Below, in pieces: positions 1,001-28,836 of a stretch of DNA of 64,000 bases. The translations under genes and the position numbers were made by a program. The notes beneath the pieces were generated by a model. That model saw nothing but the letters and a program-made list of their open reading frames with translations. It did not search any database and was not told the origin of the DNA. Numbering within the stretch: the first letter of the stretch is position 1; each line of letters begins with the position of its first letter. Location: assembly GCA_044892505.1 (NCBI GenBank), contig CM097882.1:449376001-449440000 (forward strand). Reading direction: 5' to 3'. This DNA comes from Schmidtea nova (taxonomy: Eukaryota).

Positions 1001-1184
1001 GAACTGATTGTCAAATCTTTCAAATTGTGATTAAATATTAATATTCAGCAGTGTTTTTGTTATGTTGTTTTGAGTTTTGGTATTGTGTTTTTAATAATTC
1101 ATATTCGTAACCAAATAGCCCTATGATCAGTTTCATTTTTCACATCATTTAATCATAGAGTAAATATCCTAAATACATTATAGA

Positions 1185-3727: not shown

Positions 3728-3770
3728 AGGCCAATGAGCCATATTGAATGACCTAGCTAGGCGTTATGGA

Positions 3771-4152: not shown

Positions 4153-4762
4153 TGAATTATAGAGATATCCGGATAAATAGTAACAGGGGGAATATAGACC
4201 CATAGTATAATCGTCGACGAGATTTAGAGTAGTGCGCACCAGTAGTTAAGAGAATGCGAGTAAAGCTGATTATGCAACCTTAAGTAAAGCATGCAAGGAG
4301 AATAGTAAAAATTTGGGCTGACCGGAGCAACCGGCAGAATGAGTAAAAACGATTGCTAGCAGGGAATAATGAGTAGAGATGATAAAATAATGATAAACGA
4401 GTCAGAAAGACTCAGGGAATTAGAGCGCTCGAGCGACCAATAAATTGGGAAACTGTGGGAAAAGTAACTGATTTGATAAAACATAGATAATTATTACGAC
4501 GTAAATAGATAATTGTGACCAGTCTATAGATAATTTAAATAGACTAAAAATAAAGGGGAATCTGGGAATTGGGAAATAATGAAAACCCAGTAATAAGTAA
4601 TCCCGAAAGAAAGGGAATAAAAGCGCGACGATAACAATAATGTATCGTTGAGGACCTTTGTATTTTAGATATACAAATCAATCAAACCAACCAATCAAAC
4701 AAGAAGAATCAGAACACGATAAGAGATAAGACAGGAAAATTGAGTATACAAAAGTAATCCCG

Positions 4763-7700: not shown

Positions 7701-10700
7701 GTGATGAAAAAGAAGAAGAGAACCTACAAGAAGTTGCAAGGGAAGCAAACGCGTGCTTCGAACGGAGAATAAAACCACGGTTAGAATACGAGAAAGAACG
7801 AGTCTTACGAAAAAATCTAAATTCCCTGATAGAACAAATCATACCACAAGTCAAAAAACATAGAAAAGAGTTAATGAGAAGCGAATACGAGAAATTAAAA
7901 CGATGTATTGAGTGCATACGTGACACAAGTCACACGAGATGGTCACAAATCTCACACGATAAATTAATCGCAAAAATGGGAAAAACAATGTTCAGACAAG
8001 GGAAAATAACAGATCTAAAAATTTCGGTAGAATTACCTAATGAGGACACCAAAGAAATTGAGGTGGTAGCGGATTGCACCATTAAGGAATTAATAAATGT
8101 CATCAACGAGACACTAGTGCAAAGAGAACCAGAAGACGAATGGGAAGACGACATAATCATACAATACAACGAACATGTATTATGGGATCACGATGAGAGA
8201 CGATTATATAAAATCGGTATATGGGATAATCACCAAACAATCCACGTTATCAGAATGGACGATACACCAAGGGAAACTGCTAAAGATGAGAAAAGAGAAC
8301 GGGAACGACGGAAAGAAGTTGTGCGTAAATTACAACAAATAGTAGAAATTTATCGAAATTGGCGAATTGGGCCAGAGTGGGAAAATGTATTAGAAGAACT
8401 CAATCTCAACAGACGAATACGAACACCCGTAGAAAAACAATGGAACGAGAAAGGAAAATGTTGGGAACCAAAAGAAGGGGAATATGAAGAAGAATATAAA
8501 AGAGGAATTGAAGATGGCTGCGAACCAGAGATGGGAAGGGTCTGCATGGTGACAAGGAAAGCTACGCCAATAGACCTAGATGGACCAGAAACCGCGGCTA
8601 TGTGGCTAGAAAGGGAAAAGCAAAAAACGGAAGAATTTGTCGAAATATTAAAAACTAATGCGCACGGTAAGAGAAAAGTAATAAAGGGTCTCGCAGATTT
8701 TTTCGTGGTAAATGGGGAAGATATAACATGCTTGCGTAAAGTAGCAAAAGCAATCGCGGAATATAAAAGAGTTAACGAGTGGTGTCCGGAACAACTAGAC
8801 CACGTAATTAGGAAATGGAGAAATCAAGAATTCTCGCAAGAAATTCCACAGAAAGTACATTTAAGAATAATATATCCAAACAAGGATAAGGAAGAGCTTT
8901 GGGTAGGAATAGCAGAAAAAATTCGAGATATTAAAAAGAAATTGAGATACGAACCACCATTCCATTTACAACACCAAGGACGATCATTAGATAACAGTTT
9001 GGAAATCGGAATAACGCCAGCACAATTAGATCTCATGAATACCTTGACAGTAGAAGCAATAGCAGGTCAACCATTGAAACGTAAAGAAGAAAACCATAAA
9101 CCACACAGAAGTATAAGTACGCCAAGTCCGATGAAACCAGTACTAACGCCAGGAACAAGTTCAAGACGATCTGAGACAACACCCAGAGGAACCAGAGAAA
9201 GGACTCCACCACAACCATACGACGTGGACGAAATTTTAACGGATAGCGACGATATGATAGAAGAGTTAACCGAATTAACAAGGGAAAAGGACGATAACAT
9301 TTTCGAAAGAATACAAGAACTACCTACGACAATACAAGTAACCAACACCGGAGAAGCAGAAGTCGAAGAAGAAATAATAATAGAAGAAGTAAACGATCTA
9401 ACAGAAGACGAAACGAGAGGAGCGAATGTCGAAAATGTACAATTAACACAAGAAATGGAAAGATGGTTAGAAGAAAGAGCTAACGAACCAAGAGATGTCA
9501 CCGAAGAAACCGGACGAGCAACAAGGTTTGTGGAAATAGGTACAGGAATGGATAAACGACCTCGAGGTAGACCCAAGACAGACCCAGCAACAGTAGTTAT
9601 CAGAAATAAGGACGAAAAGAGACAAGATCAATGGGAATTATGTTTAAAGAAATTAAACAAAATCGCAGAGATGAAAGAAAAAGAGACAACACCAATATGT
9701 CAAGGGGAGGAATGGATATCGAAAACAATAATGGAACTATTGGCAATAATTGATCCGGAATTAAGAAAATACTGGCGTATAACGGAGATAAGCGAAAAGG
9801 CGAAGTCACTACACAGCGCAATCGCACCCATCTTACCGGAATTCATAAAAGAGAAGACGAAATCAAATCACTTAGACTGGCAAGGAACCACTATGTTAAT
9901 AAAGAAACTGACAGAAGGAGCGGAAACAGATAACAAATACGTAATAGCTATTGCATACACGATCTACAATCTGTTGACACTGAGTAGAGGTCGACCAAAA
10001 CCCACTGCATTAGAGAGACATATAAAAAATACCGCAAAGATTATAGCTAGAGAAATAGAACCCTACGTCATTAACAAAGGAGGATGGGAAACATTTATAA
10101 AAACTAACCAGAAGAAAACACAAGCCAAGAATATGAAAAAGAAATTCGAAAAAATATTGGAAGAGTTAGGAAAAGAACAAGCAGGAACAGGAAACGCAAA
10201 GTCATCAATGAATCTGAGTTCTATAATAATGATGATGTTGATATGGATGATTAGCACCGATAGCGCAACAGCATTCGAAGTGTTTGATTGCGACCAAATG
10301 AAGTTAGGAGAAAAGTATTCATTGAGAGGTACGGAGCAATGCAAAGATGCAACTCCGGTAGAGTTGCAAAAGATTAAAAAGGAACAATGGTACCACGTGT
10401 ATCAAGAAGCAGAACTCATAAAGACAATGGTGAACGAATGTAAAGTGCAGAAGACGAGATTCGCATTCTACTGCGGGAGAGGACATTATTCAGCAATTGT
10501 CATGCCAGGAACGGAAAGAGAACCAATCGTGTTACAAGGAGAGGATTGCGAAGCACTGTTTAAACATGGAGAAGTAACAACAAGAGATAAAATCAAGATA
10601 AGAGGAAAGCCAGGAATGATGATGCAACAGACGTACTATGTAGCAGGACGGATTACGGGAGGAGAAGGATATTGTCAAGGAGAAACCTACCCGATATTCG

Positions 10701-12052
10701 GAGTACCCGCAACCAACCTAGTAGTAATGGATACGTATATAGTCGAATTAAAAAGCTATGAAGCATTCTTCGAACCAACAACGGGAGAAATGAAAACGTT
10801 ATCCATGTGTAAAATCGACAGGAGCATGTGTCAAACGGGAATGTCAACATTAGTGTACAAACCAAAGGTGAACGAATGTCAATTACAACTGCTACAAGGA
10901 GCACAGTTCGACGAAATCCAAGGAAAAACGTTTCAGGAAGAAGACGATGACGACAAAGCTAGAGCAAAGCATCTCAAGGAAGCTTTGGAGAATAAAAGAC
11001 AATTGAAACCGGATCATAGAGAAAAACGGATAGAGATGAGAGCCACACCAACAGTGTTGATAACCACAAATCAGGATGTGGGAATGAGATTCATAAAAGG
11101 GAAAGCAACCCTTAAGTGTAGTACAACGGTATACGAAACGAATTACCCAGGAATATATGTGTCAAAACAAGAAGTGCCGAATGCGAAACCCAAAATCGAC
11201 ACAATGGATATCAAACTACACCTGTATGTGAATAATAAAATGGATTTCCTATTCCATAGAGGACAAGCCTCATTACAAAAAGTGTACTACGATCTAATAA
11301 ATAATGATTGTATACTAAATCGAGAAATACTAAAGACAAAATTGGCCGTAGCAATTACGAATCCCGATAGCGCGATGCCATTATTACCACTGAGAGAAGG
11401 ACATTTCGGAAGAGTGGTTGGAGAAGCAATGTATGTATACATCTGCGAAAAGACACACGCATCGCTAGCAGCAACAACACAGTTGAAACCTGGAACCTGT
11501 ACAAATGAGTTAGAAATCGATTACAAAGGAAAAGTACGATACGTTCAACCGGTGACGAGAATCATCAATCCACCAGGGTTTGAACCAAATCCATTCAACT
11601 GTAGTAATGCGTACGGACCGCTCTATCAGAAACCAGATGGTAAATGGGTTATGTTCCCAGGAAGATCCGAAGTGATAGCACCAAGAGAATTCGAGCTAAT
11701 GCAGTTGTCAAAGGATAGGCAATTCAGCGACGTAGATGTCTCAAACAACGGAATATATAGTCCAAAGGATTTAGAAGCAGCAAGGCAGAATATATTATTT
11801 CCAGCGAGAAGAGAAGCATTACTGTCAAATATCGTAACGATAACGGGAGGAACGAATTATCGAGAAGGACCGAATTATGAACTGTTGTTGTCACCAGCAC
11901 ACTTCAAGAAAGCCACAGAAAATATGATGAAAGCAATGTGGGGAAGATTTCTGATATTCGGACAAATGATGGCTGGAATACTGGGGGTTATATTAATAAT
12001 ACAAATCGTCAGAGTGATAATAACGCAAATGTTAGCGTGTTTCGATATCTAA
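4763..12052 (+). CDS. gag-env: Gag-accessory-Env polyprotein: capsid, 3 CCHC knuckles, 3 ubiquitin-like domains, Bcl-2-like domain, signal peptide and class III fusion glycoprotein with TM
   Basis: Capsid-like FNGDASKLETFLKEF (first ATG 5258); CX2CX4HX4C x3 (5969-6121); YVINKGGWETF (BH2-like); signal MNLSSIIMMMLIWM..ATA|FEVFDC (10208); Cys-rich ectodomain with CKVQKTRFAFYCG, GEAMYVYIC, CTNEL..QPVTRII; C-terminal hydrophobic segment. Confidence 0.85.
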   Translation: MRTGVKSVVIKPTEKKVGSESNKKDKTSTTTKTTKKQKAGKDNNKNPQGSKARKIIRDKAIIENDKLSVVSNSSSNKENQAEPKESQTSEIEVDETNNDNIEELESEVEQEVEINESDNDSIISDHEVIRETESDSSSSKTEDEHNNELETRGNESKITQDSGIEMGEPREEIKDKFSGEPFNGDASKLETFLKEFGIFVEVCKWKAETTVSRIQLYLKDSALDLYLEAKNGTNPPTSWTAIKDFFQQTFGINKVLSEAFIEFSMRKQKMNESNAVYASELKKLAKSVFKDGGPINEELMAAIFIGGLRRPDIRAQVGCQGCKTIDQALETANRFELHMIGSEGRIYLAMDTAQTEPEVNLNNHIPNSQQLNRPPPQRRNEGNKVQNFESQNNYNPQRQTKQCKTCGKLGHWQQECYQNLNCGKCGVKGHSESRCSTIICFNCGRPGHYSRNCGQKSNQRGNWQSNGNRPNYGNQANTVNRPDYGNQQVNNNNNQNKTTPKEIHLMQEVQRLTELINNTTRGNPQTNQQQISMMRKIESENERLNRESQARHAQEWARIQREDEQKQQERERQPLRINMLRATNQTDTREKETTLEMNSIDPNPADNESRKEIVQKDEEVEKEAEKGEETEINQEERRKIWKKGMMVIMPNDHMFRFQYNAKEKVEILFNKVNQMIPGVTKLPREAFLQIGDAPSVKLKLTDTWENVGVTETKRNVMRIKEIEPEEIPPPIRHETRIRRIFEGKMIRRRLKEIDELGKKMGKVEVIEDKSEPTPEIDKNEQEPTENIQGETNQTAHINMLRNTTREFSDEEEDSDISSLAGDILNESEDENKEREVIKTSEPTQIKVDEIQKLLDNSLEVIYNEEFMDKKQYRKFMKALLQMNYKEWLQDREVDMLNRYVGKLIEEPLLNYTISIIINTSTPRIWIKTPFTDDIYRWVEDRLGSSYKNKFIYSQNRLVKKRTHLVETGIWPGEITLLSICDEKEEENLQEVAREANACFERRIKPRLEYEKERVLRKNLNSLIEQIIPQVKKHRKELMRSEYEKLKRCIECIRDTSHTRWSQISHDKLIAKMGKTMFRQGKITDLKISVELPNEDTKEIEVVADCTIKELINVINETLVQREPEDEWEDDIIIQYNEHVLWDHDERRLYKIGIWDNHQTIHVIRMDDTPRETAKDEKRERERRKEVVRKLQQIVEIYRNWRIGPEWENVLEELNLNRRIRTPVEKQWNEKGKCWEPKEGEYEEEYKRGIEDGCEPEMGRVCMVTRKATPIDLDGPETAAMWLEREKQKTEEFVEILKTNAHGKRKVIKGLADFFVVNGEDITCLRKVAKAIAEYKRVNEWCPEQLDHVIRKWRNQEFSQEIPQKVHLRIIYPNKDKEELWVGIAEKIRDIKKKLRYEPPFHLQHQGRSLDNSLEIGITPAQLDLMNTLTVEAIAGQPLKRKEENHKPHRSISTPSPMKPVLTPGTSSRRSETTPRGTRERTPPQPYDVDEILTDSDDMIEELTELTREKDDNIFERIQELPTTIQVTNTGEAEVEEEIIIEEVNDLTEDETRGANVENVQLTQEMERWLEERANEPRDVTEETGRATRFVEIGTGMDKRPRGRPKTDPATVVIRNKDEKRQDQWELCLKKLNKIAEMKEKETTPICQGEEWISKTIMELLAIIDPELRKYWRITEISEKAKSLHSAIAPILPEFIKEKTKSNHLDWQGTTMLIKKLTEGAETDNKYVIAIAYTIYNLLTLSRGRPKPTALERHIKNTAKIIAREIEPYVINKGGWETFIKTNQKKTQAKNMKKKFEKILEELGKEQAGTGNAKSSMNLSSIIMMMLIWMISTDSATAFEVFDCDQMKLGEKYSLRGTEQCKDATPVELQKIKKEQWYHVYQEAELIKTMVNECKVQKTRFAFYCGRGHYSAIVMPGTEREPIVLQGEDCEALFKHGEVTTRDKIKIRGKPGMMMQQTYYVAGRITGGEGYCQGETYPIFGVPATNLVVMDTYIVELKSYEAFFEPTTGEMKTLSMCKIDRSMCQTGMSTLVYKPKVNECQLQLLQGAQFDEIQGKTFQEEDDDDKARAKHLKEALENKRQLKPDHREKRIEMRATPTVLITTNQDVGMRFIKGKATLKCSTTVYETNYPGIYVSKQEVPNAKPKIDTMDIKLHLYVNNKMDFLFHRGQASLQKVYYDLINNDCILNREILKTKLAVAITNPDSAMPLLPLREGHFGRVVGEAMYVYICEKTHASLAATTQLKPGTCTNELEIDYKGKVRYVQPVTRIINPPGFEPNPFNCSNAYGPLYQKPDGKWVMFPGRSEVIAPREFELMQLSKDRQFSDVDVSNNGIYSPKDLEAARQNILFPARREALLSNIVTITGGTNYREGPNYELLLSPAHFKKATENMMKAMWGRFLIFGQMMAGILGVILIIQIVRVIITQMLACFDI

Positions 12053-13129
12053 AAGAGAGAAAAGAAAGTGAATTGGAAAATGGTAGTAGGATTTTTACCA
12101 TTCCTTGCGAAAACGATGGTGTTACACGGTCACTCAAAAGATATCCACCGAATAAAAAGACTCCTGAAGATATTAGCAAAAATGAAGGGAACAGATGAAG
12201 AAGTAGGACGCAAATTTAAAAAGATAATGAACGACGAACAAGCAAGACAACAGCTCAAGAGAGAAAGAAAAGGTTTATGGGAGAGGATGAAAGGATATAA
12301 AACCCAAAATGATTCGAGTGACGACGATGATGACGATGACGACTATAAGGGAGGACAAGTGTATAAGAACCAAGCACCACAATACATCGAAAAGAATCCA
12401 GCCGACGCATGGAAATGTTACGCGCCTCCACCAACAATGTATCAAGAACCACTACAAGGAGGAAAAAATAGCACGATGCAAATGATGCCAATGACAAATG
12501 TATACCCCATGATACCAGAAGATTATAAAATGAGAAGATGTAGAAGCGTAGATCCACAAGGAGATACACACACGATCGCAGTAATGTCATCAAACACAGG
12601 TCCAGTGTTAACCACGACAATAGAAATTAACGGAAGAGAAATCGAAGCAATGATCGACACGGGAGCAAACATTTCCGCCATCGACATCAAATGGATACCA
12701 CAAGAGCAAAGACGGGAAATAGAAAGAACAAACGTCCATGTAATTGCATGTAGCAAAGAAGTTGTAGAAGTAGCAGGAAGATGGTGGGTAAAAATACGCC
12801 ACTTAAACACGGAAATCGATACCTACGTAGCAGTTATACCAGCATTAAGCGTGCCTTGCATTATCGGAACAGATTTGATGCCAGCATTATTTAAAGAGAT
12901 TGTAATCGATCTCGGAACAATGAGACTAAAAGATCGCACCGGACAAATATGCGCAATAGAAGCCAAAGTGACAAGTTCAAAGCAAATGATCATACCCGCA
13001 AGAAAGGAGAAAATATGTTACGTAAAAATAGATCCGACAATCCAAGGTGATATGATTTTCGAACCAAGTAAGAGATTCGAGAAAAGAAAAGCGTTGCCAA
13101 TGGCAAGAGGATTTTGTCAACATAAATGA
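12053..13129 (+). CDS. pro: Env cytoplasmic tail plus retropepsin aspartic protease; same frame as the upstream ORF, separated by a single TAA
   Basis: AMIDTGANISAI (DTG at 12656) and CIIGTDL motifs; 12068-4763 is a multiple of 3; sequence reads CFDI*KREKKVNW. Confidence 0.85.
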   Translation, partial: KREKKVNWKMVVGFLPFLAKTMVLHGHSKDIHRIKRLLKILAKMKGTDEEVGRKFKKIMNDEQARQQLKRERKGLWERMKGYKTQNDSSDDDDDDDDYKGGQVYKNQAPQYIEKNPADAWKCYAPPPTMYQEPLQGGKNSTMQMMPMTNVYPMIPEDYKMRRCRSVDPQGDTHTIAVMSSNTGPVLTTTIEINGREIEAMIDTGANISAIDIKWIPQEQRREIERTNVHVIACSKEVVEVAGRWWVKIRHLNTEIDTYVAVIPALSVPCIIGTDLMPALFKEIVIDLGTMRLKDRTGQICAIEAKVTSSKQMIIPARKEKICYVKIDPTIQGDMIFEPSKRFEKRKALPMARGFCQHK

Positions 13130-16100
13130 TAATGGAGAAATCCCAATAAATATGGTAAATTTCGACGAGGAGGATAAAATAATCTACGAAAACGAAAGAC
13201 TAGGTAAACTAACCCCAATGATGGATATCGAACTACCAATAGAAGGAGCAGGGAAAGACAAAGAACCAACCTGGAATATTGACAGTGAATTATTAAATGA
13301 GGACCAAAAGAAACAGTTAGAAAAACTGCTGATAGAGTATAAGGATATATTCGCAGCATCCGATTTAGATCTAGGAACATGTGATGTCACACTACATACA
13401 ATACCATTAACAGATGAAACACCAATTGCATTAAGGCCGTACAAATTAGCGGAAGCACAGAAGGCAGTAGCAGAAGCAGAAGTGAAGAAAATGTTGGATG
13501 CAGAAGTAATCGAACCAAGTTGTTCACCCTGGCAATTTCCAGTGGTAATGGTGAAGAAGAAAGACGGAACACAGAGATTCTGTATAGATTACCGAAGATT
13601 GAATACAGTGACAAAACGAGATACTTACCCATTACCAGACATCAACGAGATGCTACTAACATTACAAGGAGCAGCATATTTTACGTCGTTAGATCTGAAA
13701 AGCGGATATTGGCAAATAAAAATGAAGGAAGAAGATAAAGAGAAAACTGCCTTTACCATCGGTAGAGACCTATATCAATTTCGAAAGATGCCATTTGGAT
13801 TAACGAACGCACCAGCATCATTTCAGAGATGCATGAATTTCGTCACCCATGGAATAAAGCAGTGCATGGTCTACATCGACGATTTATTAATTTATTCTAG
13901 TACATTCGAACAACACATACAAGACATTCGAGATGTATTCGTTAGACTTAGACAATGGAAGTTAAAACTCAAGCCATCCAAGTGTGACTGGGCAAAAGAA
14001 AAGGTTACATTTTTAGGACATATAGTGTCAGCAAAAGGAAAAGAACCGGATCCTAGAAACATCGACAAGGTAAAAGAATGTCCAGTACCAAAAACAATAA
14101 CCCAAATACAAGAATTTCTCGGATTATGTGGATATTATAGGAAGTTTATAAAAGATTACGCCGGAATCGCAAAGCCTATACAGGAACTGGTAAAGAAAGA
14201 TGTATCATTCATATGGGGAGATGAACAACAAACAGCCTTTGAAACGTTGAGAGATAAATTGATAACCGCACCCATATTGGTACACCCAGACTTTAAGAAG
14301 CCATTCCTACTTGCAACAGATGCAAGCGGATATGCAGCAGGAGCAGTATTAGGACAATACGATGACGAAGGAAAAGAACGTGTAATCGGATATTATAGCC
14401 GGACATTCAAAAAGCATGAGAAAAATTATTCAGTGACAGAACGGGAAGCATTAGCGATTATACTAGCAATAAAACATTTTAAATATTTATTATGGGGTCA
14501 CATCATCTGCATAACAACAGATCACCAACCGCTTGTATGGTTAGGACAGCACAAGGAAACATCTAGTAGACTAATGCGATGGGCAATGCAGTTACAGGAG
14601 TACTCACCGGACATAAAATTTAAATCAGGACGAGCAAATGCGAATGCAGACTGTATGTCAAGACTGACATTTCCGGAATTAACCGATCCTGATGTACAAC
14701 GAATTTGTGTATTAATAGCAGAAGATTTAGATTTTAGCGAGCTTAAGAAAGATCAACAAGAAGACAAAGAATTAGGACAAATCATAGAGTTCCTAACATC
14801 TCGAAACATGGAGGTATTCAAAGAGAATAAGGAATTAAAGGAACATATAGGAAAATATCAACATCGCTACATAATAAATAAAGGATGGTTGTTAATACAA
14901 GACGGAGAAAAGAGATTGATGTGTTTACCGGAAAACAGAAGGAAAGAGATAATGATCCAGTACCATGATGGGAAATTAGGAGGCCATATGTCCGAGAAGA
15001 AGACAATAAATCGTATGAGACAAAAATATTATTGGCGAACAATGGAAGAAGATATAAAAGAATGGATTAAAAATTGTCTAACTTGTGCAACCAGAAAGGA
15101 TAGTGGGAAGAAATGGAAGAACCCGCTACAACCAATGCCGATACCAGCAGAGCCAATGACAACTATAGCAATGGACGTAATAGGACCATTACCGGAAAGT
15201 CTAAACGGAAATATTTATATATTAGTGATAACAGATTATCTGACAAAATTCCCGGAAGCATTTGCCATGCAAGACCAAAAAGCAAAAACTGTAGCAAAAA
15301 TTTTAGTGGAAGAAATATGTTGCAGATACGGAACCCCAAAACAAATACTCACAGACCAAGGAACTAATTTTATGAGCGAGCTATTGAACGAGGTAACAAA
15401 CTATTTCAGAATAGCAAAATTGAGAACTTCACCATATCACCCGCAAACGAATGGACAAACGGAGCGATTCAATGGTACATTGATTAGAATGTTATCAAAT
15501 TACGTCAGCAGACACCAAACTGATTGGGACGAATACATAAAATTATGTTTAATGGCATACCGAATGTCGATACATGCAGCAACAAAACTAAGCCCATTTC
15601 AACTTATGTATGGAAGAGAATGCAACATGCCCATAGATTTAGAGTATCAGCCACCATTATCGCAATATATGGAAGACGACGACTACGTAACCAAATTCAA
15701 AGAAAGAATGCAGGAAATATGGAAAACGGCAGAACTCAACATTAAATTTTATCAGGAAAGTTATAAGGATTTACACGACCAAAAGAAAAATGTAAAAGCA
15801 AACGATCTAAAACCAGGAGATTGGGTGATAATAGAAACTCCCGAAATAATACCAGGAACTGTTAAGAAACTCCAAAGACCTGGAAGAGGACCTTATGAAA
15901 TTATATACAAAAAGGACAATAATGTCAAAGTTAAGCTAATAAATCGACCGTTAATACGACCCATATATGTAAACACTTGCAGATGTAAGAAAGTACCTAA
16001 AACGATAACTACAACACCAGAGAATCGAATAATAACCAGATCACAAACAGCCAGGATAAATATGCTCAGAGCTAATGCAACTGAAGACGACAAAGCAGAA

Positions 16101-19100
16101 ATAAGGCAAAAAGAAATCAGAAATAAAGAAATTATATTGAAGGCGAGAGAGATAATGGGAAGATGGCATGTTAGAGACGAAGTAGGCATATCAAGGGATA
16201 TTAGACATATAATTAGCCGTTACGCACAAGGATTACCAACCGAACCAATTATTTCTGAATTATTGGAAAAAATCCCTGAAATACTCTTATTGAAAGATGT
16301 AGGAGGACAACCAGCCTTACATAATGCGATAGAGTGTAAAAACATTGAAAGAGCAAAAGAATTTCTAAAAATCGCAAAAGAAACAAACCAAAACTTGGAC
16401 GTAGGGAATCGGGAACAAGAAACTCCATTAATGACAGCCGCAATCCACCAAGCAGATAAAGAAATGATAGACCTATTGATAAAAGCTCATTTCAGTTGGA
16501 CAGAACGAGATAGAGAAGACAAAACAGTGCTAAATCACGTAATATGGAGTTCTCACCAACCAATGCTGAAATACATAATAGCTAACTCCACTTGGGAGAT
16601 AGACGAACTAGTTAAAAGAGACATTATCAAAGAGGCAATCAAAATTGGTAAATGCAACACGATCCGTAAGTTAATCAAATGGAAACGACCAGAAGATGAT
16701 ACATGGGTCTTAGACATAAACGAAGTATACAGCGAAGGACAAAACGCACTGTTAAGATACCTTTTGAAATTTACTTGTGATCAGAAGACATTACTAACCT
16801 TATTAGACAGAGGAAACATAAACATCACAAAGAATGAAGAAGAATACAAATTCGATAAAGAGAAGGAAGCCTTATTCAATAAGATTAGGAAATGGTGTGC
16901 GAAACCACTTGACAAACTAATAACATACAAAGACATAAACAATTTTAACGAGAAATACCAGACAATAGTAAGTGAGTACGAGGAATTAGTAAAAATCTTA
17001 AACCATCCCGAAAAATGCAAACAGGTTTTAGAGAAAAAAGAAAGAGAAAGTAACAAGAAACTCACACCACTCTTCAAAGCAGAAGCACCATACCAAGCTA
17101 GACTAGATGCGATACAAGAAAAAGCAAAAGAATTGTTACCGGAATTCGAGAATAGTAAACATGCACTGGAAATACTCGGTGCATTAGTTGAAAAAGTACA
17201 CGCATACGCAAAAGGAACTTACAACGGAAACGACATAGTAATAATAAAAAAGGAGATGCCAGTAACATTTTTACTACCAAAGGACGGAATAATGCCCATA
17301 CATAGAGCTCTACGAAATGGCAAAGATAGAAAAGTAATGGAAATTGCAAGAGTAATGCAAAATTGCGGAAGCAATATGAATATGATAGACGAGAAAGGAG
17401 ATACACTTATGGTATTTGCAGCAAGGGCCAAAACGAAAACAAAGGTATTAGAGGAACTATACAAAGCAGGTGCAGGACTTACAGGAAAGACAGATAAAGA
17501 TAATTCGATATTGGATGTAGCATTATTAACACACAATTGGGAAATGGTCAATTTCATTAAAACCGTCCCAAATCAGGAAGAAATAGATCACCTAACTGAT
17601 ACGGTCAAGAAACCCAGTGTACTAGCAATGATGAACAACGTCGAACTAACAGAATCAATACTTACGTGGATAAATCCTAATACTAACGAACCAGCATTCA
17701 GGATTAATAAATTTACAGAACATAACCAAAACTGGTGTATAAGAAGTGCCTTAATAACGTATAAATGGCCAGAGATATTGAAGATGTTTATGGAAAGAAA
17801 GGATCTAAGAATCACAACCAGCCCGAAAGAAGAAAAATACACAGGCAAATGGAAAGAATTGATGAAGACATACATCAACAATTGGATCAAGGCCAAAAAG
17901 GAAATCTTGGAATATAAATCCACTAACAAAGTAATACCGGAGCAGGTAGAAACACAAGAATTTGAGGCAAGCAATCTAACGACATTAGCATATGCAAAAT
18001 TAATAGAAGAAATCAATGTCGAGGACGACATTTTCGACGAGCCAGGGGGAGATGACAACACAGATAGTGACGACGATAACAACTCAGAAAATTCAAGCGA
18101 TCACGAACCACCCGATAAAGAGGAAAACGAGAGAAAAGACAAGAAACGAGACAAGGAAGGAAAGAAAGGTGAAGACGAAAAACAAAGAGATGAAGAGAGA
18201 GAACAAGGAACAAACGACCAAGGAGATAAAAATGACACCCAAAGAACAGGTTATAAATCAACCATAAAACCATTCTTCAAACCAGAATTACTATTACTAA
18301 CAATGATTATAACGTTAATTAATCCAAGTCAGGGAATGACATGTGAAGAAAGGGCAATAATACAAATAAAAAACGCAAAAGGAATCGAACGAGTATGTTG
18401 GTCGAAAAAGGACAAAATCACGGAACAAAATAGCCCGATGGATTGCAGAATCTCAAAACACGAGCAAGAGATCATAGAGATCAATGACTTAGATCTAGAT
18501 ACCTGGTACAAAATATGCACCGTTAGAAAACAAAAACATCCAAGATCACACAACACAATCGCATGTGCAAAATACCAAACACCTAAAGCAGCCATGACAA
18601 TACAACAGTCACCCAAAGGAGATTACATCATCGGAAAATGTGGAAGAACAGAGACACAGAGAACAGAAAATAAAAAACCCCAGGCAATAGATAAGCAAAC
18701 AACACCAACCCTACGAATTACAATAGAAAGGCCCGAAACAAGAATTGCCACAAACGAAACCGAAAGAGTGTCTTACCAAATGGAAGTATTATGCTTAGCA
18801 CTCATACTAATAATAATAAAACGATTAGAGGAAGGAATAGAAATTGAAACTATGACAATAACAGAAGTGGAAGATACACAGAACACTAACATAAAATGTT
18901 GGGCGAGGAATAACGAGGAAATCGGCGTAAATGAAATAAGGAAAAGTCGAAAACCCACAACAAACAAAGTAATTAAAGTATCCGAAGTAAGAGCAGACAA
19001 GACGTACAAACTATGCCTATTAGAAAAAGAGACAAACAAGAAAGGTACCACAAAATGTAAAACATTCCAACCTGGAGAAGTAATAAAGTTCAGAAGGAGA

Positions 19101-21722
19101 ACGAGGAAGAGAAATAAACAAATCAAACAGAAAATAAACATAACATTAGAAATAAAAGAGATAGAACCAAACGTGAAAGGAGTATGCTGGAGGAAGTACG
19201 AAAAAGAAACAAATGAAAGAAAGACACCACAATGTCGAACAAGCACAGGAGCAACGACGATACAAATAAAAGGTTTAGAAAGTAAACAAACTTATGAAAT
19301 ATGTCTCGTAAAGAAAAATGATCAGATAACGATAAACGACCTAGAATGCGGAATATACACCACTTCATCCGGAACAAGAACTAAAACGATAACACGAAAA
19401 AATAAAAGAAGACAACGAAACAAAGGGAAACCGAAGTACACCACTACCTTTAAAAACAATAAACAACCGATAAGCCAAGAAGTTACGACAAAACCCGAGA
19501 AAAAGACATCAGCAACTCTAACATTATGGAAAATAGAGAATAAAACATTAGAAATATGTTGGATAATAGTTCAGAAACATATAAGAAGACAATCAAGAGA
19601 GTGCAGAAAAACAAATAAAGAAATCAAGATCGAAAAACTACAATTTAATAGCGAGTACGAAGTATGTACAATAGAAAAAACGGACGCACTAGGAAACCAA
19701 CAAGAAAGATGCGAAACCTACTATACACCAGCGAACGCAACATCAAAAGGAATAACAAGGAAACTCGAATTCAGGGAACTAAGCCAAACGAATGAACAAA
19801 TGGACGTAGAAAAAACAATAACCGACCCTCAAGCAAAATGGACACCCGAAGAAGTTATCAAGGAAGTCAAAAGAAAGCAAGAGGAACGGGAACAATTAAT
19901 GAGAAAACTAAAGGGACAATACGGAATAATGTTCAACCAAAGCGAATCTATACAAACAGACGAGAATAAAGAAATTAAAGAACTAATTGGCTTAGGAATA
20001 TTAACAGCGACCATACCAGTAATAATCGCGTTATCAGCTATATGGATACGCAAGATAAACCCAAAGAAATCGGTAACCCAATGGACAAATAGAGACAGTA
20101 CAAGCCATGGAGTGGAAATGCTAGAAGAAGAAGCACGAGAAGAACCAAAAAAGAAAGAAGCAAAAAGCGGAAAACTAGGAATAAACAACAAAGACAAGGA
20201 AATAAAAGAGATTAAAGGAGAAGAGAAAAAATATGAAAGGCGAACCAGAAGCCTACCGCAGAGTTCAACATGGTTGAGTCTAACAATAATATTGACATTA
20301 ATTAATAGGGAAGAAGCAATAAACCCACAGACAGGGATAAAAGTAATAAATGTCCAGGAAGTCGAGAAAATATGTTGGTATAGAGAAGATGAACCAATTG
20401 GAGAAAATAACCCACTAAAATGCATAATCAGAAAATCCGACCAGGATATCGTACGAATAGAAGAAATGGATGGAGGAACCATGCATCGGATATGCATAAT
20501 AGAAAAGGAAAAGAAGTCGGGACTACCTAAGACAGTCGTATGCCAGAAATATGAAACGCCTAGACTTGAATGGTATAGAGTAAAACCAACAAAGAAAGAA
20601 ATCAAAAACACAATAGATCAACCAGCAACTCAGATAAAAAACACAACGGATAAACCAGGAGAAGGAGAGAAAAGCACCAATAAAACGAGAGAAAGAATAT
20701 CACCCCAACAGGAGTGCGTATGCATAGCATTAATACTAGCAATGTCCAAACGTATCGATAAAGGAATAATAATAGAACAAATGGCCATAACAATAAGGAA
20801 AACAAGTAGCAACAAACTATGCTGGGGAACATACAACGAACCAAGGAAGGAATACCAAGTTCAGACAAGCGACGAATCACGAACAAACAAGGAAATCGAA
20901 ATACAAGAAATACAAATGAATGAAGAAGGAAGTATATGTATCTGGGAGAAAGGAATCCAAGAGGGAATAGAGCATTGCAAGACATTCCAAAAAGGAGAGA
21001 TACTGAAATTCGATGAAGAAGAATTAACAAGGACAGAAAGAACTCTGACATTAACAGGACTCGATCAGACAGTTAAAGGAATATGTTGGACAAAGCATAA
21101 CCCAGAAGGGGAAGAAGACAACCTAACCCACTGTAGAGAAATAAAGAATAAAGAAAAAGTCGAATTAAAGAAAATGGAAGTAAATAGGACATACGCGATA
21201 TGTACCTTCACCAGAAAAGGTTCAGAAAAACCAGAATGCGGATTATATCATATCTCAGAGAAACTACAACAACAGATCGAACCAGGAAACGTGGAAAACC
21301 GAACAAAAGAAAATAACGTCAAAAAACTACTAAATCGCCATTGGTCTACACAAGAAGTAATGAACAAAGTTAAGAGTCAAATACAGAAAGAGAAGAAGCC
21401 AGAGGCTCAAACCCAAAATGAGATAAAAGCGAACCAGAATAAAAGAGAAACAAACAGTGGAAAAACAATAATAGGATTAATGAGTATAGGAATATTAATA
21501 GCATATGGAATACTGACGACAAGCATAATAGTATATTGGAGATACAGAAAGAGAAACAAAGCGACAGCCATACAATGGCCAGATATCAAAATCGTGAAAC
21601 TAGGAATAGAAATACCAGAGGAGATACAGAAAGAATTTCAAAGAAGAACGAAAGGTAAAGAATTCTGGAAACAAATAGAAGATGAAGAACGATACGAAGA
21701 AAAGACGATAATGATGATATAG
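13116..21722 (+). CDS. pol: Pol (RT, RNase H, integrase) fused to ankyrin repeats and two FN3-like/TM cassettes; entered by a +1 shift near 13112-13115
   Basis: YIDD (13872), LATDAS, H-x6-H..CxxC, MDVIG/TDQG/TERFN triad, GPY motif; then ankyrin-like TPLMTAA, PALHNAI, PIHRAL; seven CW...L..xxYxIC...C modules; TMs near 19983-20048 and 21468-21540. Confidence 0.9.
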   Translation, partial: VNINDNGEIPINMVNFDEEDKIIYENERLGKLTPMMDIELPIEGAGKDKEPTWNIDSELLNEDQKKQLEKLLIEYKDIFAASDLDLGTCDVTLHTIPLTDETPIALRPYKLAEAQKAVAEAEVKKMLDAEVIEPSCSPWQFPVVMVKKKDGTQRFCIDYRRLNTVTKRDTYPLPDINEMLLTLQGAAYFTSLDLKSGYWQIKMKEEDKEKTAFTIGRDLYQFRKMPFGLTNAPASFQRCMNFVTHGIKQCMVYIDDLLIYSSTFEQHIQDIRDVFVRLRQWKLKLKPSKCDWAKEKVTFLGHIVSAKGKEPDPRNIDKVKECPVPKTITQIQEFLGLCGYYRKFIKDYAGIAKPIQELVKKDVSFIWGDEQQTAFETLRDKLITAPILVHPDFKKPFLLATDASGYAAGAVLGQYDDEGKERVIGYYSRTFKKHEKNYSVTEREALAIILAIKHFKYLLWGHIICITTDHQPLVWLGQHKETSSRLMRWAMQLQEYSPDIKFKSGRANANADCMSRLTFPELTDPDVQRICVLIAEDLDFSELKKDQQEDKELGQIIEFLTSRNMEVFKENKELKEHIGKYQHRYIINKGWLLIQDGEKRLMCLPENRRKEIMIQYHDGKLGGHMSEKKTINRMRQKYYWRTMEEDIKEWIKNCLTCATRKDSGKKWKNPLQPMPIPAEPMTTIAMDVIGPLPESLNGNIYILVITDYLTKFPEAFAMQDQKAKTVAKILVEEICCRYGTPKQILTDQGTNFMSELLNEVTNYFRIAKLRTSPYHPQTNGQTERFNGTLIRMLSNYVSRHQTDWDEYIKLCLMAYRMSIHAATKLSPFQLMYGRECNMPIDLEYQPPLSQYMEDDDYVTKFKERMQEIWKTAELNIKFYQESYKDLHDQKKNVKANDLKPGDWVIIETPEIIPGTVKKLQRPGRGPYEIIYKKDNNVKVKLINRPLIRPIYVNTCRCKKVPKTITTTPENRIITRSQTARINMLRANATEDDKAEIRQKEIRNKEIILKAREIMGRWHVRDEVGISRDIRHIISRYAQGLPTEPIISELLEKIPEILLLKDVGGQPALHNAIECKNIERAKEFLKIAKETNQNLDVGNREQETPLMTAAIHQADKEMIDLLIKAHFSWTERDREDKTVLNHVIWSSHQPMLKYIIANSTWEIDELVKRDIIKEAIKIGKCNTIRKLIKWKRPEDDTWVLDINEVYSEGQNALLRYLLKFTCDQKTLLTLLDRGNINITKNEEEYKFDKEKEALFNKIRKWCAKPLDKLITYKDINNFNEKYQTIVSEYEELVKILNHPEKCKQVLEKKERESNKKLTPLFKAEAPYQARLDAIQEKAKELLPEFENSKHALEILGALVEKVHAYAKGTYNGNDIVIIKKEMPVTFLLPKDGIMPIHRALRNGKDRKVMEIARVMQNCGSNMNMIDEKGDTLMVFAARAKTKTKVLEELYKAGAGLTGKTDKDNSILDVALLTHNWEMVNFIKTVPNQEEIDHLTDTVKKPSVLAMMNNVELTESILTWINPNTNEPAFRINKFTEHNQNWCIRSALITYKWPEILKMFMERKDLRITTSPKEEKYTGKWKELMKTYINNWIKAKKEILEYKSTNKVIPEQVETQEFEASNLTTLAYAKLIEEINVEDDIFDEPGGDDNTDSDDDNNSENSSDHEPPDKEENERKDKKRDKEGKKGEDEKQRDEEREQGTNDQGDKNDTQRTGYKSTIKPFFKPELLLLTMIITLINPSQGMTCEERAIIQIKNAKGIERVCWSKKDKITEQNSPMDCRISKHEQEIIEINDLDLDTWYKICTVRKQKHPRSHNTIACAKYQTPKAAMTIQQSPKGDYIIGKCGRTETQRTENKKPQAIDKQTTPTLRITIERPETRIATNETERVSYQMEVLCLALILIIIKRLEEGIEIETMTITEVEDTQNTNIKCWARNNEEIGVNEIRKSRKPTTNKVIKVSEVRADKTYKLCLLEKETNKKGTTKCKTFQPGEVIKFRRRTRKRNKQIKQKINITLEIKEIEPNVKGVCWRKYEKETNERKTPQCRTSTGATTIQIKGLESKQTYEICLVKKNDQITINDLECGIYTTSSGTRTKTITRKNKRRQRNKGKPKYTTTFKNNKQPISQEVTTKPEKKTSATLTLWKIENKTLEICWIIVQKHIRRQSRECRKTNKEIKIEKLQFNSEYEVCTIEKTDALGNQQERCETYYTPANATSKGITRKLEFRELSQTNEQMDVEKTITDPQAKWTPEEVIKEVKRKQEEREQLMRKLKGQYGIMFNQSESIQTDENKEIKELIGLGILTATIPVIIALSAIWIRKINPKKSVTQWTNRDSTSHGVEMLEEEAREEPKKKEAKSGKLGINNKDKEIKEIKGEEKKYERRTRSLPQSSTWLSLTIILTLINREEAINPQTGIKVINVQEVEKICWYREDEPIGENNPLKCIIRKSDQDIVRIEEMDGGTMHRICIIEKEKKSGLPKTVVCQKYETPRLEWYRVKPTKKEIKNTIDQPATQIKNTTDKPGEGEKSTNKTRERISPQQECVCIALILAMSKRIDKGIIIEQMAITIRKTSSNKLCWGTYNEPRKEYQVQTSDESRTNKEIEIQEIQMNEEGSICIWEKGIQEGIEHCKTFQKGEILKFDEEELTRTERTLTLTGLDQTVKGICWTKHNPEGEEDNLTHCREIKNKEKVELKKMEVNRTYAICTFTRKGSEKPECGLYHISEKLQQQIEPGNVENRTKENNVKKLLNRHWSTQEVMNKVKSQIQKEKKPEAQTQNEIKANQNKRETNSGKTIIGLMSIGILIAYGILTTSIIVYWRYRKRNKATAIQWPDIKIVKLGIEIPEEIQKEFQRRTKGKEFWKQIEDEERYEEKTIMMI

Positions 21723-21847
21723 GGGCGGATTATGACTGTAAATAATAGTGTAAATAACAAAGCATTACCGTAATAGTATGGGTATCGATATTATAAAAAT
21801 TGTAAAAAGCTAGAAAAAAAAAGTAAATGATGTATATAATTTAGAAA

Positions 21848-22204: not shown

Positions 22205-22296
22205 ATAAATAAAGCGGAAAACTGTAAATATGTAAAAATAAAAACAAGAAAAACCAAAAATAAATGACAAGTCGAATGTATATATTATTGTAGAAA

Positions 22297-23673
22297 ATGG
22301 ACAGAGAAGAACGAATAATCGAAATTTTGAGATTAGAAAACAGAAAATGGAGCAAGAGGCTCACATGCGGAAAATGTAACAATTTATTACGAGAACCCAG
22401 ACAAACGATATGTGGATGTAGAATATGTACAAAATGTATACAAGAATTAGATGCAACAGGAATAACAACATGCCCAGAATGTAAGGAAGGAAGAATAGTG
22501 TTGGACGAAACCAGAACGGACAAGGCAACCCAAAGAGAAATTATGAGCACCACAACGGAGTGCGTAAATACACCTTGTACATGGCAAGGACAAATAGGTA
22601 ATCTAGAAAACCATATGGAAAAGTGCGAGGAGAAAAGAACCGAATGCGAGAAGTGCCAACAGACAATAATTTTAAAGAAGAGAGAACAACACAAGGAAGA
22701 ATGTAAAGAAGAAGAAATCGCATGCGAGTATTGTGAAGCCCGAGAAACAAGGAGAAAAATCGAAGAGGAACATTTGAATATAACAGAGGAGAAAGTATGC
22801 AGACAATATGTAAGTAAATGTCCAAACAATTGCGAAATAACAGAAGAAGTAAAGTTACATGAACATTGGAAAGTATGTAACGAAAGACCAAGAGAATGTC
22901 CATATAACAAACAGGGATGCAAAGAAAAGCGGACGCGGCAATCAATGAAACAACACCTAGAAGAAGCAGCACTAACGCATGTGGAAATGACAAACGAAAC
23001 GACAAAAGAAACGGAACAGACAATCCAGAAATTAGAAAAGGAAGTAGAATCACATAAGATAATGATGAGTTTACTACTAGAAACAAGAGAGCAGTTTGAA
23101 CTAACTCGCGAAAGAATGGAAAAGAAAATAATAGCCATAGAAGAATTAGGAAAAGGAATGAAAATACAATATAATCAATTAATACGAGAAATTGACGAAA
23201 GAAGGGACTTACCAATCGCACCTTACCTATGGAAAGTAACAGATTTCAGAGACAAACTAACAGAAGCCAGAAATATGACGAAAACAGCAGTAATAAGCCC
23301 ACCATTTTATTTATGGAAAAACGGGGTTAAAATAAGATTGAAAGTATACCCAAATGGAGACGGAAGAGGACAAGGAACACACGTGTCAATATTCTTCTCA
23401 CTATGTAAAGGAGAATACGATGACCTAATAGAATGGCCCTTGAAAGTAGGAGTCATTATAAGAATCAAAAGTATGGGAAAACCAGTAGAAAAGTTCTTTG
23501 AAACAGACAAACATTCGAGTACGAGCGAAAAACCAACGACAGAATGCGGACTAGCAGCAGGAGAACCAATGTTTATAAGGAAAGAAAACCTATGGGAGCA
23601 ACTATATGCAGACACGCTATACATAGAGATGGAGAGGCATGAGAAAACAGACAGAAAAGGATGGTTGGCGTAA
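22297..23673 (+). CDS. TRAF-like: Full-length TRAF-family protein (RING, TRAF zinc fingers, coiled coil, MATH)
   Basis: CGKCNNLLREPRQTICGCRICTKC..CPEC RING; CVNTPCTWQG..LENHMEKC zinc fingers; YLWKVTDF..SPPFY..IRLKVYPNGDGRGQGTHVSIFF..KGEYDDLIEWP MATH signature. Confidence 0.93.
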   Translation: MDREERIIEILRLENRKWSKRLTCGKCNNLLREPRQTICGCRICTKCIQELDATGITTCPECKEGRIVLDETRTDKATQREIMSTTTECVNTPCTWQGQIGNLENHMEKCEEKRTECEKCQQTIILKKREQHKEECKEEEIACEYCEARETRRKIEEEHLNITEEKVCRQYVSKCPNNCEITEEVKLHEHWKVCNERPRECPYNKQGCKEKRTRQSMKQHLEEAALTHVEMTNETTKETEQTIQKLEKEVESHKIMMSLLLETREQFELTRERMEKKIIAIEELGKGMKIQYNQLIREIDERRDLPIAPYLWKVTDFRDKLTEARNMTKTAVISPPFYLWKNGVKIRLKVYPNGDGRGQGTHVSIFFSLCKGEYDDLIEWPLKVGVIIRIKSMGKPVEKFFETDKHSSTSEKPTTECGLAAGEPMFIRKENLWEQLYADTLYIEMERHEKTDRKGWLA

Positions 23674-25698: not shown

Positions 25699-26050
25699 TG
25701 TTGGGCCCGCCAAATCACCTAAAAACACAATAAAACGAACAAAAGCATGAAACAATAAAGAAATAATAAAAATAAAAATAGCAAGAAAAACAAATTAAAA
25801 ATAACAATAAAACGACAAATAATAATTGATAAATTTTCAGTAAAAGGAAATTTTGAAAATAAACCGGTAAACAACCGCAAAGGGGGGCCTGAAATAAGAA
25901 AAAAAAAATAGAATTAAATAAAATAATAGTACAAATAATTAATTAATTACTTAGAAAATCAGGACCACCCAGCGAGAAACCGGAAAAGGAAACAAAATAA
26001 TGTTTAGATTAGAATAAAATAATAAAAATACTTTGATGGACGGCCTGATC

Positions 26051-26088
26051 CTGATTGGTCAATCCAACCAGACGGATCAGTATAAATA
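26051..26088 (+). promoter_or_regulatory. Candidate LTR promoter (inverted CCAAT plus TATA)
   Basis: CTGATTGGTC at 26051 and TATAAATA at 26081. Confidence 0.5.
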
Positions 26089-27093
26089 CCGATCCAAAAA
26101 TCACAACAACAGACTTGAGACGTTTTACATTTCACTTACAATCAAGACTAAACTTTGATTTAAGTAACATTTCCTTTAACGAAGCGAGAATTTTTTGAAA
26201 AAACAGAATTCAAGTACGGAACGTAATTTTGATTGTTATTTTTTATGTACCCATGATTTTTATTTGATTAAAATTTTATATGTAAACGTTATTTTATTTT
26301 TTCATTGATTATTGACACTTTAATGCATATAGCTATACTTCCTATGCTGCTCACGCGGCGAGGGAGTCCGAGTCGTCGTCGTGGGGCCTCAGGGTCTCAC
26401 ATGGCGGTTCAACCTTTTTATTATTTAATTTAGAGGTGAAGTTTTATCTAGAAAATTTGATTGAATTTTTAGTCTAATACAGACCATTTGCAAATTATTT
26501 AATTTTGGGTTGCACAACGGACGAAGGTCGAGGGCCAAATATGTAGATTGCGGAGGGCGGATGGATAAGGAGGGACACACCATGGTAGGGCATGCTCAGT
26601 CTTTAAATTTTTGGTAAATTGAATCGAAAGGGAACCTCCCGCATGGAAAACAGTGAGCAACAACTAAAATAAATTTGAATAATTTCGTTGGAATGAGAAA
26701 ATCCAACGTAGTCCAAAGTCCGATTTCATTCGGAATCAGCATTTCGCCTACAAAATTCTAATATCGATAAATTCCGATCGCGATGGAATGCGTCGGAAAA
26801 TCCAAATTAAATTAGTTACTAAAAATAGGCCGATCGTCGTATATGACGCGGTTTCCCAAGTTATTCTCCGATCGCTGTATATAGCGCGGAAATCTTGATT
26901 AAATTTGATAATTCCTGAATGCTGTATATAGCACAGGACTAATTATGAACTCTTTATTCCGACCGTGGTAGATCACGGCGGAGAGAAATAAAATTAATCT
27001 TATTTTTTAACTGTTGTGATTATATGCAACATAATTAAATTATCAACGAATTTCCCCCTTAACTCATATTTATATCCAATAAATGTAATATAG

Positions 27094-27573
27094 ATGTCGA
27101 CAGCTGAACTTACAAATCAATTAACGCAACTACGGAATATGGAGCAAGGGAATCTGCGGAATGAAAATCTCTCGCAGCTCAAGGAACTACCAGCATCGAT
27201 ATTGCGAACCCTCAACTGCCAAATGTATAAGTGGCGACAGGGGTTTGGCCGAAAATGCCCGTTCTCGATATGGACAGGAGGGCACGACCAAATATTCTAT
27301 CGAGGAGGACCGAACTGGCCGATTTCTCAAAGGCCGTACTCAAACAAATTTGGCCGACTTGTCGTACTGATCAAGGACACCGATGGACAGACAAGCCGAG
27401 TAATTTATTGGGGGCATATCCCTCGTCGAGAGCTGTGCCAATTGGGTCTGCACGAATTCCTGCCGCGAAAACCCTTCGGCAAGGAATGCCAGAAAGGACA
27501 ACCTGCGTTTTCCTGGGCTCGTCTCCGTCAGAAACCGATTAACAGCGAATTACATAGCCTGTTTCGGAGATAA
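27094..27573 (+). CDS. LTR ORF A, 3' LTR copy
   Basis: Same as 521-1000 except one L/F change. Confidence 0.5.
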   Translation: MSTAELTNQLTQLRNMEQGNLRNENLSQLKELPASILRTLNCQMYKWRQGFGRKCPFSIWTGGHDQIFYRGGPNWPISQRPYSNKFGRLVVLIKDTDGQTSRVIYWGHIPRRELCQLGLHEFLPRKPFGKECQKGQPAFSWARLRQKPINSELHSLFRR

Positions 27574-27757
27574 GAACTGATTGTCAAATCTTTCAAATTG
27601 TGATTAAATATTAATATTCAGCAGTGTTTTTGTTATGTTGTTTTGAGTTTTGGTATTGTGTTTTTAATAATTCATATTCGTAACCAAATAGCCCTATGAT
27701 CAGTTTCATTTTTCACATCATTTAATCATAGAGTAAATATCCTAAATACATTATAGA

Positions 27758-28354
27758 ATGAACCCAGATTTGATGCAGAAAGAATTGGAAAAGATGTGGC
27801 GGATTCGGAGAGCCCAGGACAAGGAATTGGGTCTCCTCAAGGCACAATTGATCAAAGCAGAGGCACAGATTGCATATTTGCGCAAAAGCTGGTTTGCTCC
27901 GGCCCGAATGAAGGAGCAAATCAGTAAAACCGAGCGCGCCCAACAAACTGCAGCCGATTACCAAATGGAATGGGAGGCTACAAAGATAGAACTCCGAAAA
28001 TGCCTCCATTCCGTAACTGCCTCATACATCGAGAAGGAACTCAGAGAGCAAATCCGTCCGATTACGTACCAAGCTTGGACGGCAGAAAAGAAGACAGTAA
28101 ACTCCATTGGAACGGATGTCTCCGATTTAATTGAAAGTCGGAATGTGACAGCTCCTCCAGCCCATTCAACCACTTCATCGGCGACTGCGCACCAGAAACG
28201 CAAGCGCATTGGGCAGAAACGGCGGAGACAGAGAAAATTATTTGCCCAGCAATTACAAATCCAAGTCGATGGTCTACGTCAGATGACTGAGGAAGCATTA
28301 TTGACGGAGATTTTTCCTCCGGCGGGAGTTTTTACCGAACTCATTAAAAATTAA
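27758..28354 (+). CDS. LTR ORF B, 3' LTR copy
   Basis: Identical translation to 1185-1781. Confidence 0.6.
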   Translation: MNPDLMQKELEKMWRIRRAQDKELGLLKAQLIKAEAQIAYLRKSWFAPARMKEQISKTERAQQTAADYQMEWEATKIELRKCLHSVTASYIEKELREQIRPITYQAWTAEKKTVNSIGTDVSDLIESRNVTAPPAHSTTSSATAHQKRKRIGQKRRRQRKLFAQQLQIQVDGLRQMTEEALLTEIFPPAGVFTELIKN

Positions 28355-28836
28355 ATAAATTGTTGCATTGGCTTAAGAATCTCATCGTTCCTTTAAATTG
28401 ATTTAATTAACTTTACCAATGATTAAATAAAGATAGAACAAAAGTATAAATTCAGTTTACAAAATATCGAATCGAGATAATTAAATAATTAAGCGAGCAT
28501 TCGTTGAAATACTTCTCGCAGACTGAGTAATGAAAAAAATAAATTTTCTGAAAGATTTACACGGAATACATAAGTAGATGATTAAAGCATAAGTCCTTCT
28601 AACGGCAGCGATGAACCCGTAAACATAAATGGGGAGTAGTACTAGCGATAGTGCTCACCTGCCCATCATTGTTTAACCACCCTGCGCATCACCAACTTGA
28701 TTATATAGGGAAATAATCAAGGGCGCTTGAGTGTAGAATTGCAATTTTATGCATGATCATGGATGAGGGATCCCTAGTCATTGTTAGAGCATTTTTCATC
28801 TAACCCCTCCATGAACCCAGCATTATAATATTAATA

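Follow-up and report, generated by a model that had tools for sequence, protein, structure and literature searches.

What do two runs of cysteine-rich modules, each closed by a membrane helix, do at the far end of a retroelement polyprotein? The question is raised by 64,000 nucleotides of Schmidtea nova DNA (GenBank assembly GCA_044892505.1, contig CM097882.1, positions 449,376,001 to 449,440,000; hereafter the window), of which positions 1-28823 belong to a single long terminal repeat (LTR) retroelement, 29.7 kb in full, inserted at a TAT microsatellite. The LTRs of this giant element (3,125 bp each) show 1 mismatch between the 5′ and 3′ copies, so its insertion is recent. We propose, with a probability of roughly 0.5, that the two C-terminal cassettes are cut out of the polyprotein as type I membrane glycoproteins with predicted FN3-type ectodomains, and most likely act as attachment or adhesion partners of the element's gB-type envelope protein (Env). 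The proposed architecture and topology appear rather probable; that attachment or adhesion is the main job of the cassettes is a tentative suggestion.

The open reading frame (ORF) at 13056-21722 contains exactly seven Cys-Trp motifs (at 18396, 18897, 19185, 19557, 20373, 20820 and 21084), all within its last 1,150 amino acids, where 31 cysteines occur compared with 7 in the 650 amino acids of the ankyrin region. A module profile run over the six frames of the window recovered seven modules and no eighth, and when left out in turn each module scored 39-55 bits against the profile of the other six, with 500 of 500 of its own shuffles scoring lower (maximum 8-14 bits). The first-pass annotation had assigned all seven a common CW..C pattern; the number is confirmed, but the pattern was idealised, as only four columns (C, W, C, C) are invariant among these modules of 82-87 amino acids (15-37% pairwise identity), the second Cys being absent in A2 and B2 and the Tyr in B1 and B2. 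Their grouping into duplicated cassettes of four (A) and three (B) modules was borne out, with 31% identity between A and B over 360 amino acids (E = 2e-45). The duplication is old, since the DNA self-match extends over just 74 nt at 70%. Basic clusters sit between the modules in cassette A.

The extension had been described as the end of Pol, a label that has to be dropped: intact copies show a single Gag-Env-Pol polyprotein, of which the Pol part is the back half. An open frame of 5,641-5,736 amino acids surrounds module B1 in 32 of 150 scored copies (drawn from 3,408 candidates), and 14 of 20 upstream stretches keep the Gag knuckle, Env signal and protease within a single frame (14 of the 20 had been chosen for long frames). 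In the window copy, a stop at 12050-12052 and a frame change within the 13056-13129 overlap interrupt this frame. Of 38 copies picked by DNA likeness alone, 24 show no interruption between reverse transcriptase (RT) and the last codon, as do all 20 picked for long frames. Because the frame stays open through the extension in these other copies, the extension is a fixed part of the giant-element family. Its absence from intact relatives had been named as an observation that would speak against it; instead, both intact copies and a sister family carry it in open form.

This sister family emerged from a MATH search of the same genome, which led to a dispersed TRAF frame of 476 amino acids: 12 of 13 stretches ending at such MATH matches hold the end of a related polyprotein, each with four modules (E = 1e-9 to 1e-17). 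Its identity to the giant element is ~86% over RT-integrase and 58% overall; four of the 12 stretches are open across the entire 8 kb examined, and all 10 tails tested lack an internal stop. It carries one cassette (signal, module 1, linker, inner hydrophobic segment with Lys-Arg, modules 2-4, stalk, helix and tail), 37% identical to cassette A. Conservation between families is highest in the inner hydrophobic segment (10 of 14 residues); the predicted cytosolic tail is 45% identical, and its acidic-Tyr motif and hydrophobic end recur in all 12 sister loci and, slightly altered, in 57 of 58 giant-element copies. The sister ectodomain is closer to A and the sister helix and tail closer to B; the difference in cassette number reflects either duplication in the giant element or halving in the sister family. 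A third, compact envelope-bearing family (frames of 3,393-3,401 amino acids) yielded no module in 18 stretches from eight loci. Searches of public protein sets returned no cassette homologue, none being found outside the element's own genome, and a search for a host donor gene also found none. In the compact family (e.g. G000:C1:60079001-60099000) a separate ORF of ~330-480 amino acids follows the frame, and many copies of the family are open. MATH matches also form a dense cluster at G000:C2:405-455 Mb, apparently an expanded host TRAF-like family.

The extension is under purifying selection. The ratio of nonsynonymous to synonymous variation (pN/pS), estimated from the window copy and 23 open copies (pairs not independent; intervals bootstrapped over codons), was 0.01-0.02 for the enzymes (RT, RNase H and integrase) and 0.13 for the ankyrin region; the whole extension gave 0.27 (0.22-0.33) and the modules 0.17 (0.13-0.23). 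The linkers are looser (0.5-0.7, wide intervals), and substitutions in helix B exchange one hydrophobic residue for another (0.84, again with a wide interval). Of the 31 cysteines, 30 are invariant in this set. The sister cassette is likewise constrained (0.24, 0.19-0.29, 10 copies).

An FN3-like fold had been suggested for all modules, with a resemblance to FLRT and LRFN proteins. The fold was recovered in module B3, one of two modelled: its model is a beta-sandwich that superposes on FN3 structures, with six strands compared with the seven (A-G) of FN3, and its matches to single-domain chains start at residue 13-15, which suggests a first strand that is either lacking or left out of the model. 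Identity between the B3 model and its fold matches is 4-18%; the top matches are tied and are mostly adhesion and matrix proteins, several others being cytokine-receptor FN3 domains. The model of module A2 is of low confidence, the inner hydrophobic segment being helical in it, and the other modules are assigned by homology. No match reached the Pfam cut-off for the FN3 clan (best E 0.007-0.05, with four FN3 families appearing in 8, 5, 5 and 3 of 42 rows), and a further FN3-clan scan gave an FN3 match in 1 of 15 rows, below threshold. The FLRT/LRFN likeness stays below threshold throughout (Fn3_ELFN in 8 of 42 rows, best E 0.054; an ELFN2/PPP1R29 chain, E 1.3). We take the modules' Leu-x-x-x-x-x-Tyr, followed by a Cys pair in the last two strands, to resemble FLRT; FLRT, LRFN and ELFN have leucine-rich repeats (LRR) ahead of FN3, whereas Pfam found no LRR domain in the scanned proteins of the giant element. 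The cassette ectodomains are predicted to adopt an FN3-type fold, from one modelled module and the homology of the rest.

As for the membrane segments, the six named in the first-pass annotation indeed rank as the top six 19-mers of the entire ORF in hydrophobicity, on a rough scale that gives approximate hydrophobicity and insertion scores. Two long segments score like the Env anchor, and four short ones hold 8-11 apolar residues. These four exist, but they are not the separate signal-like and internal kinds once proposed, all being homologous to one another. Signals A and B are preceded but not followed by basic residues, helix B has them on either side, with more following it than preceding it, and the inner segments show no bias. 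The predicted ectodomains have ten sequons (N-glycosylation sites), all preserved in each of 24 sequences, compared with 126 of 168 other Asn/Ser/Thr positions (p ~0.005); two near the anchor recur in the sister family, and each of the three cassettes has sequons between module 1 and the inner segment as well as beyond that segment. Internal translocation is already needed in this polyprotein, because the signal that opens Env is internal, lying ~1,830 amino acids into the frame; its Met is not directly preceded by an acceptor-like AG. Hydropathy, charge, sequons and the internal Env signal together fit type I membrane glycoproteins, likely freed by signal peptidase. Three points weigh on the other side: of the seven sequons predicted to lie in the cytosol, four are likewise fully intact, a canonical (textbook) cleavage site is present in signal A only, and internal signals are sometimes ignored, according to the consulted portion of PMC6513831, which also cites a case of a cleaved internal signal. 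Just before signal B, third codon positions at 20231-20288 vary at 0.005 against an extension mean of 0.051 (58 copies), the second lowest window.

Under the proposed mechanism, the cytosolic enzymes and ankyrin repeats would be made first, after which signal A would re-open translocation into the endoplasmic reticulum (ER), as the internal Env signal must do earlier. Helix A would stop translocation and leave a loop of ~70 residues in the cytosol, signal B would re-open it and helix B stop it again, with host signal peptidase cutting the cassettes free as two membrane glycoproteins. The 60-residue cytosolic tail, with its acidic-Tyr motif and hydrophobic C-terminus, might act in sorting. A lumenal position is likely for the inner hydrophobic segment and its Lys-Arg; the segment may dip into the membrane or pair chains, or the Lys-Arg may mark a dibasic cleavage that sheds module 1. 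Since the cassettes would be made one-to-one with Gag and Env, they may be present at budding sites and help particles or producer cells to dock on neighbours. This stoichiometry, the adhesion-type fold, the basic clusters in A and dispensability in the compact family all point to an accessory attachment or adhesion protein.

The best-surviving alternative, which we nonetheless hold to be rather unlikely, keeps the same processing and makes the products decoy or signalling receptors on the producer cell, dampening immunity or cell death or blocking re-infection together with the TRAF, RING and ankyrin cargo. That the element carries such genes, that the available description of Burro cargo is of apoptosis- and ubiquitin-related genes (PMC6431247), that cytokine-receptor domains are among the fold matches and that the acidic-Tyr tail is shared between families would all suit it, and poxvirus decoy receptors offer a precedent in the part of PMC5998005 consulted. 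However, neither a ligand-binding signature nor a host donor was found, the tied top fold matches are mostly adhesion or matrix proteins, and the other host-modulating genes are mostly separate small ORFs (for RING and TRAF, ORFs apart from the polyprotein by Pfam), while the cassettes are tied to the structural polyprotein.

It is improbable that the four signal-like segments serve as starts of four separate proteins, from spliced subgenomic RNAs or internal starts, to give two secreted single modules and two membrane proteins. The four segments are homologous, each heads a module and an in-frame Met precedes inner segment A, but this Met is Pro in the sister family, the other three segments lack a conserved preceding Met and no stop separates the units in either family. 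Nor is there a conserved accessory-type acceptor before inner segment A: among 58 copies, none of the eight most frequent variants has an AG directly before that Met, and several variants have lost the AG ahead of inner segment B. Still less credible is a truly membrane-spanning inner segment, which would make the cassettes polytopic, with modules 2-4 cytosolic in at least one. The 11 apolar residues followed by an invariant Lys-Arg in all three cassettes, the helix in the low-confidence model and a rough insertion score for segment A between those of helices and signals lean that way; segment B, however, scores poorly, and conserved Cys pairs and sequons lie downstream of the inner segment. 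If all hydrophobic segments spanned, the sister protein would cross the membrane three times and that of the giant element six, flipping the conserved tail to opposite sides between families, whereas a non-spanning inner segment leaves it cytosolic in both. Neutral read-through into captured, decaying host sequence, which the lack of homologues outside the genome and the near-neutral linkers (0.4-0.7, wide intervals) might suggest, is already largely refuted, and very improbable, given that two families with cassettes of only 37% identity both show purifying selection, that the cysteines are invariant and that 10 of 10 sister tails lack internal stops.

If the two cassettes are indeed attachment glycoproteins, a second and a third surface protein would be added to envelope-bearing gypsy elements, described so far with one glycoprotein. 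That the putative surface cassettes are kept in two families with many recent copies suggests cell-to-cell movement of giant elements and a receptor-binding or host-modulating arm apart from fusion, and offers a testable part of the question whether Burro-like elements are infectious proviruses. If true, this would also be a natural case of a ~5,700-residue polyprotein entering and leaving the ER translocon three times. More speculatively, and on balance doubtfully, the element may encode a multi-glycoprotein entry kit as in large enveloped viruses, with a gB-type fusogen and one or two FN3-type attachment or adhesion proteins from a single 5,700-residue polyprotein, the cassette having duplicated and diverged between families and possibly addressing different target tissues.

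Table 1. Features of the giant element in window coordinates.
Feature	Position	Strand	Basis or remark
5′ LTR, 3′ part	1..2250	+	LTR begins 875 bp before window
Gag (CCHC knuckles) and gB-type envelope	4730..12052	+	PF00098; PF24664 E 2e-71; stop ends frame in window copy
Internal signal peptide of Env	10208..10273	+	~1,830 aa into frame; present, with small changes, in 17/20 copies
Env tail and aspartic protease	12053..13129	+	PF00077
RT-RNase H-integrase-ankyrin-acidic linker-cassettes A and B	13056..21722	+	ORF of 2,888 aa
Ankyrin-repeat stretch, best-scoring	16317..16586	+	PF12796 E 1e-11
Signal-like segment A	18288..18335	+	11 apolar residues after a basic flank; -3 and -1 residues small
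Module A1	18336..18596	+	module alignment/profile; pN/pS 0.12
Inner hydrophobic segment A and Lys-Arg	18786..18824	+	10/14 identical to sister family
Module A2 (three Cys)	18837..19091	+	module alignment/profile
Module A3	19125..19379	+	module alignment/profile
Module A4 (no counterpart in cassette B)	19497..19745	+	module alignment, cassette comparison
Stalk A, N-glycosylation sequon common to sister family	19746..19982	+	cassette and sequon comparison
Membrane helix A	19983..20048	+	acidic before, basic after
Charged loop, predicted cytosolic	20049..20270	+	charge bias
Signal-like segment B	20271..20318	+	basic before; non-canonical -3 residue
Module B1	20319..20576	+	module alignment/profile
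Inner hydrophobic segment B and Lys-Arg	20715..20753	+	homology to inner segment A
Module B2 (three Cys)	20760..21011	+	module alignment/profile
Module B3	21024..21269	+	modelled: six-strand FN3-type sandwich
Membrane helix B	21468..21536	+	hydropathy, charge
C-terminal tail, acidic-Tyr motif and hydrophobic end	21537..21722	+	common to sister family
Accessory TRAF gene (RING, zf-TRAF, MATH)	22294..23673	+	Pfam
3′ LTR	25699..28823	+	match to 5′ LTR

The envelope match within 4730-12052 is to a Monjiviricetes-type (gB-like) fusion glycoprotein. Smaller genes of the giant element include a RING protein at 2581-3042, ORFs at 521-1000 and 1173-1781 within the LTR, and, at 21845-22204, 23760-24848 and 24889-25494, two coiled-coil ORFs and one ORF with two hydrophobic segments; several of the small genes begin just downstream of an AG preceded by a T-rich stretch. 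The interval from the RING gene to gag holds tandem arrays of 29-bp and 32-bp units (3489-4246). At G000:C1:590843293-590946923, four giant-element copies follow one another at a spacing of ~33 kb, suggesting a tandem array or segmental duplication.

Further along the window a second gypsy element (38198-60529; protease-RT at 39371-41908, RNase H-integrase at 57301-59046), with direct repeats near 38198-38908 and 59328-60039 that contain 91-bp tandem units, is split by a Polinton-like insert of ~15 kb (41904-57298; inverted repeats 42013-43132 and 56001-57121, 98%). The insert encodes a protein-primed polymerase (52621-56556), an A32-like ATPase (44106-44738), an integrase/chromo protein (45798-46454) and a TATA-binding-protein-like ORF (43625-44065, minus strand; PF00352, E 2e-13). 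Two adjacent paralogous ORFs at 46451-48512 (348 and 340 amino acids, 74% DNA identity over 300 bp) gave no Pfam match and are possibly capsid-related.

Among known systems, the giant element is Burro-like by size, gene order and cargo, a likening made by description. The planarian Burro/GYPSM1 giant Ty3/gypsy elements are ~30 kb long, with long LTRs and one huge ORF (PMC6431247, as far as consulted); the giant element shares this length with long LTRs, the single ORF with Gag, an in-frame Env between gag and pol and protease-RT-RNase H-integrase, and the ankyrin and TRAF/MATH cargo. Its ORF, however, has ~5,650-5,700 amino acids compared with 4,873 and 5,140 in Burro, and the consulted part of that account names no FN3 module, C-terminal membrane cassette or second glycoprotein, though Burro1-4, compared by description only, may carry an unrecognised tail. 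A Pfam scan alone, without profile-profile search, matched no BIR or BCL2-like motif in 11 giant-element ORFs. A literature search, with the primary Burro papers outside its scope, found no description of such C-terminal cassettes.

Platyhelminthes GAG-ENV-POL errantiviruses with an Env of the HSV/gB kind (HSV, herpes simplex virus) share the gene order and a class III-type envelope, but their six Schmidtea entries measure ~14.5-18 kb against 29.7 kb, and 'fibronectin' and 'ankyrin' are absent from the main text of the survey as consulted, whose supplements were searched for flatworm rows (PMC13524379). In planarian secretory cell nidovirus (PSCNV), the consulted part of PMC6211748 describes a giant ORF with ankyrin repeats, fibronectin-type modules and membrane helices in its rear part, for which cleavage by signal peptidase and furin is predicted; PSCNV is, however, an RNA virus, with fibronectin type II modules of 40 amino acids and unrelated fold, and, compared by description, a parallel rather than a homologue. 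The crocodilian endogenous retrovirus CrocERV31, with its captured nectin3, also keeps a beta-sandwich adhesion receptor under purifying selection, for which an attachment role has been speculated, but with immunoglobulin (Ig) domains in a separate ORF in place of env, ~76% identical to the host gene (PMC4299795, in the portion consulted); the giant element differs in its FN3-type modules, in frame with Pol, its intact env alongside and its unrecognisable donor. The FN3 domains of ELFN/FLRT/LRFN, contactin and sDscam resemble the modules in predicted fold, whereas the modules come without LRR or Ig domains and with an extra Cys pair and apparently six strands. Atlas virus, as described, has a single Gag-Pol-Env frame with two glycoproteins, and by analogy the giant element would work like a viral polyprotein that sheds several glycoproteins.
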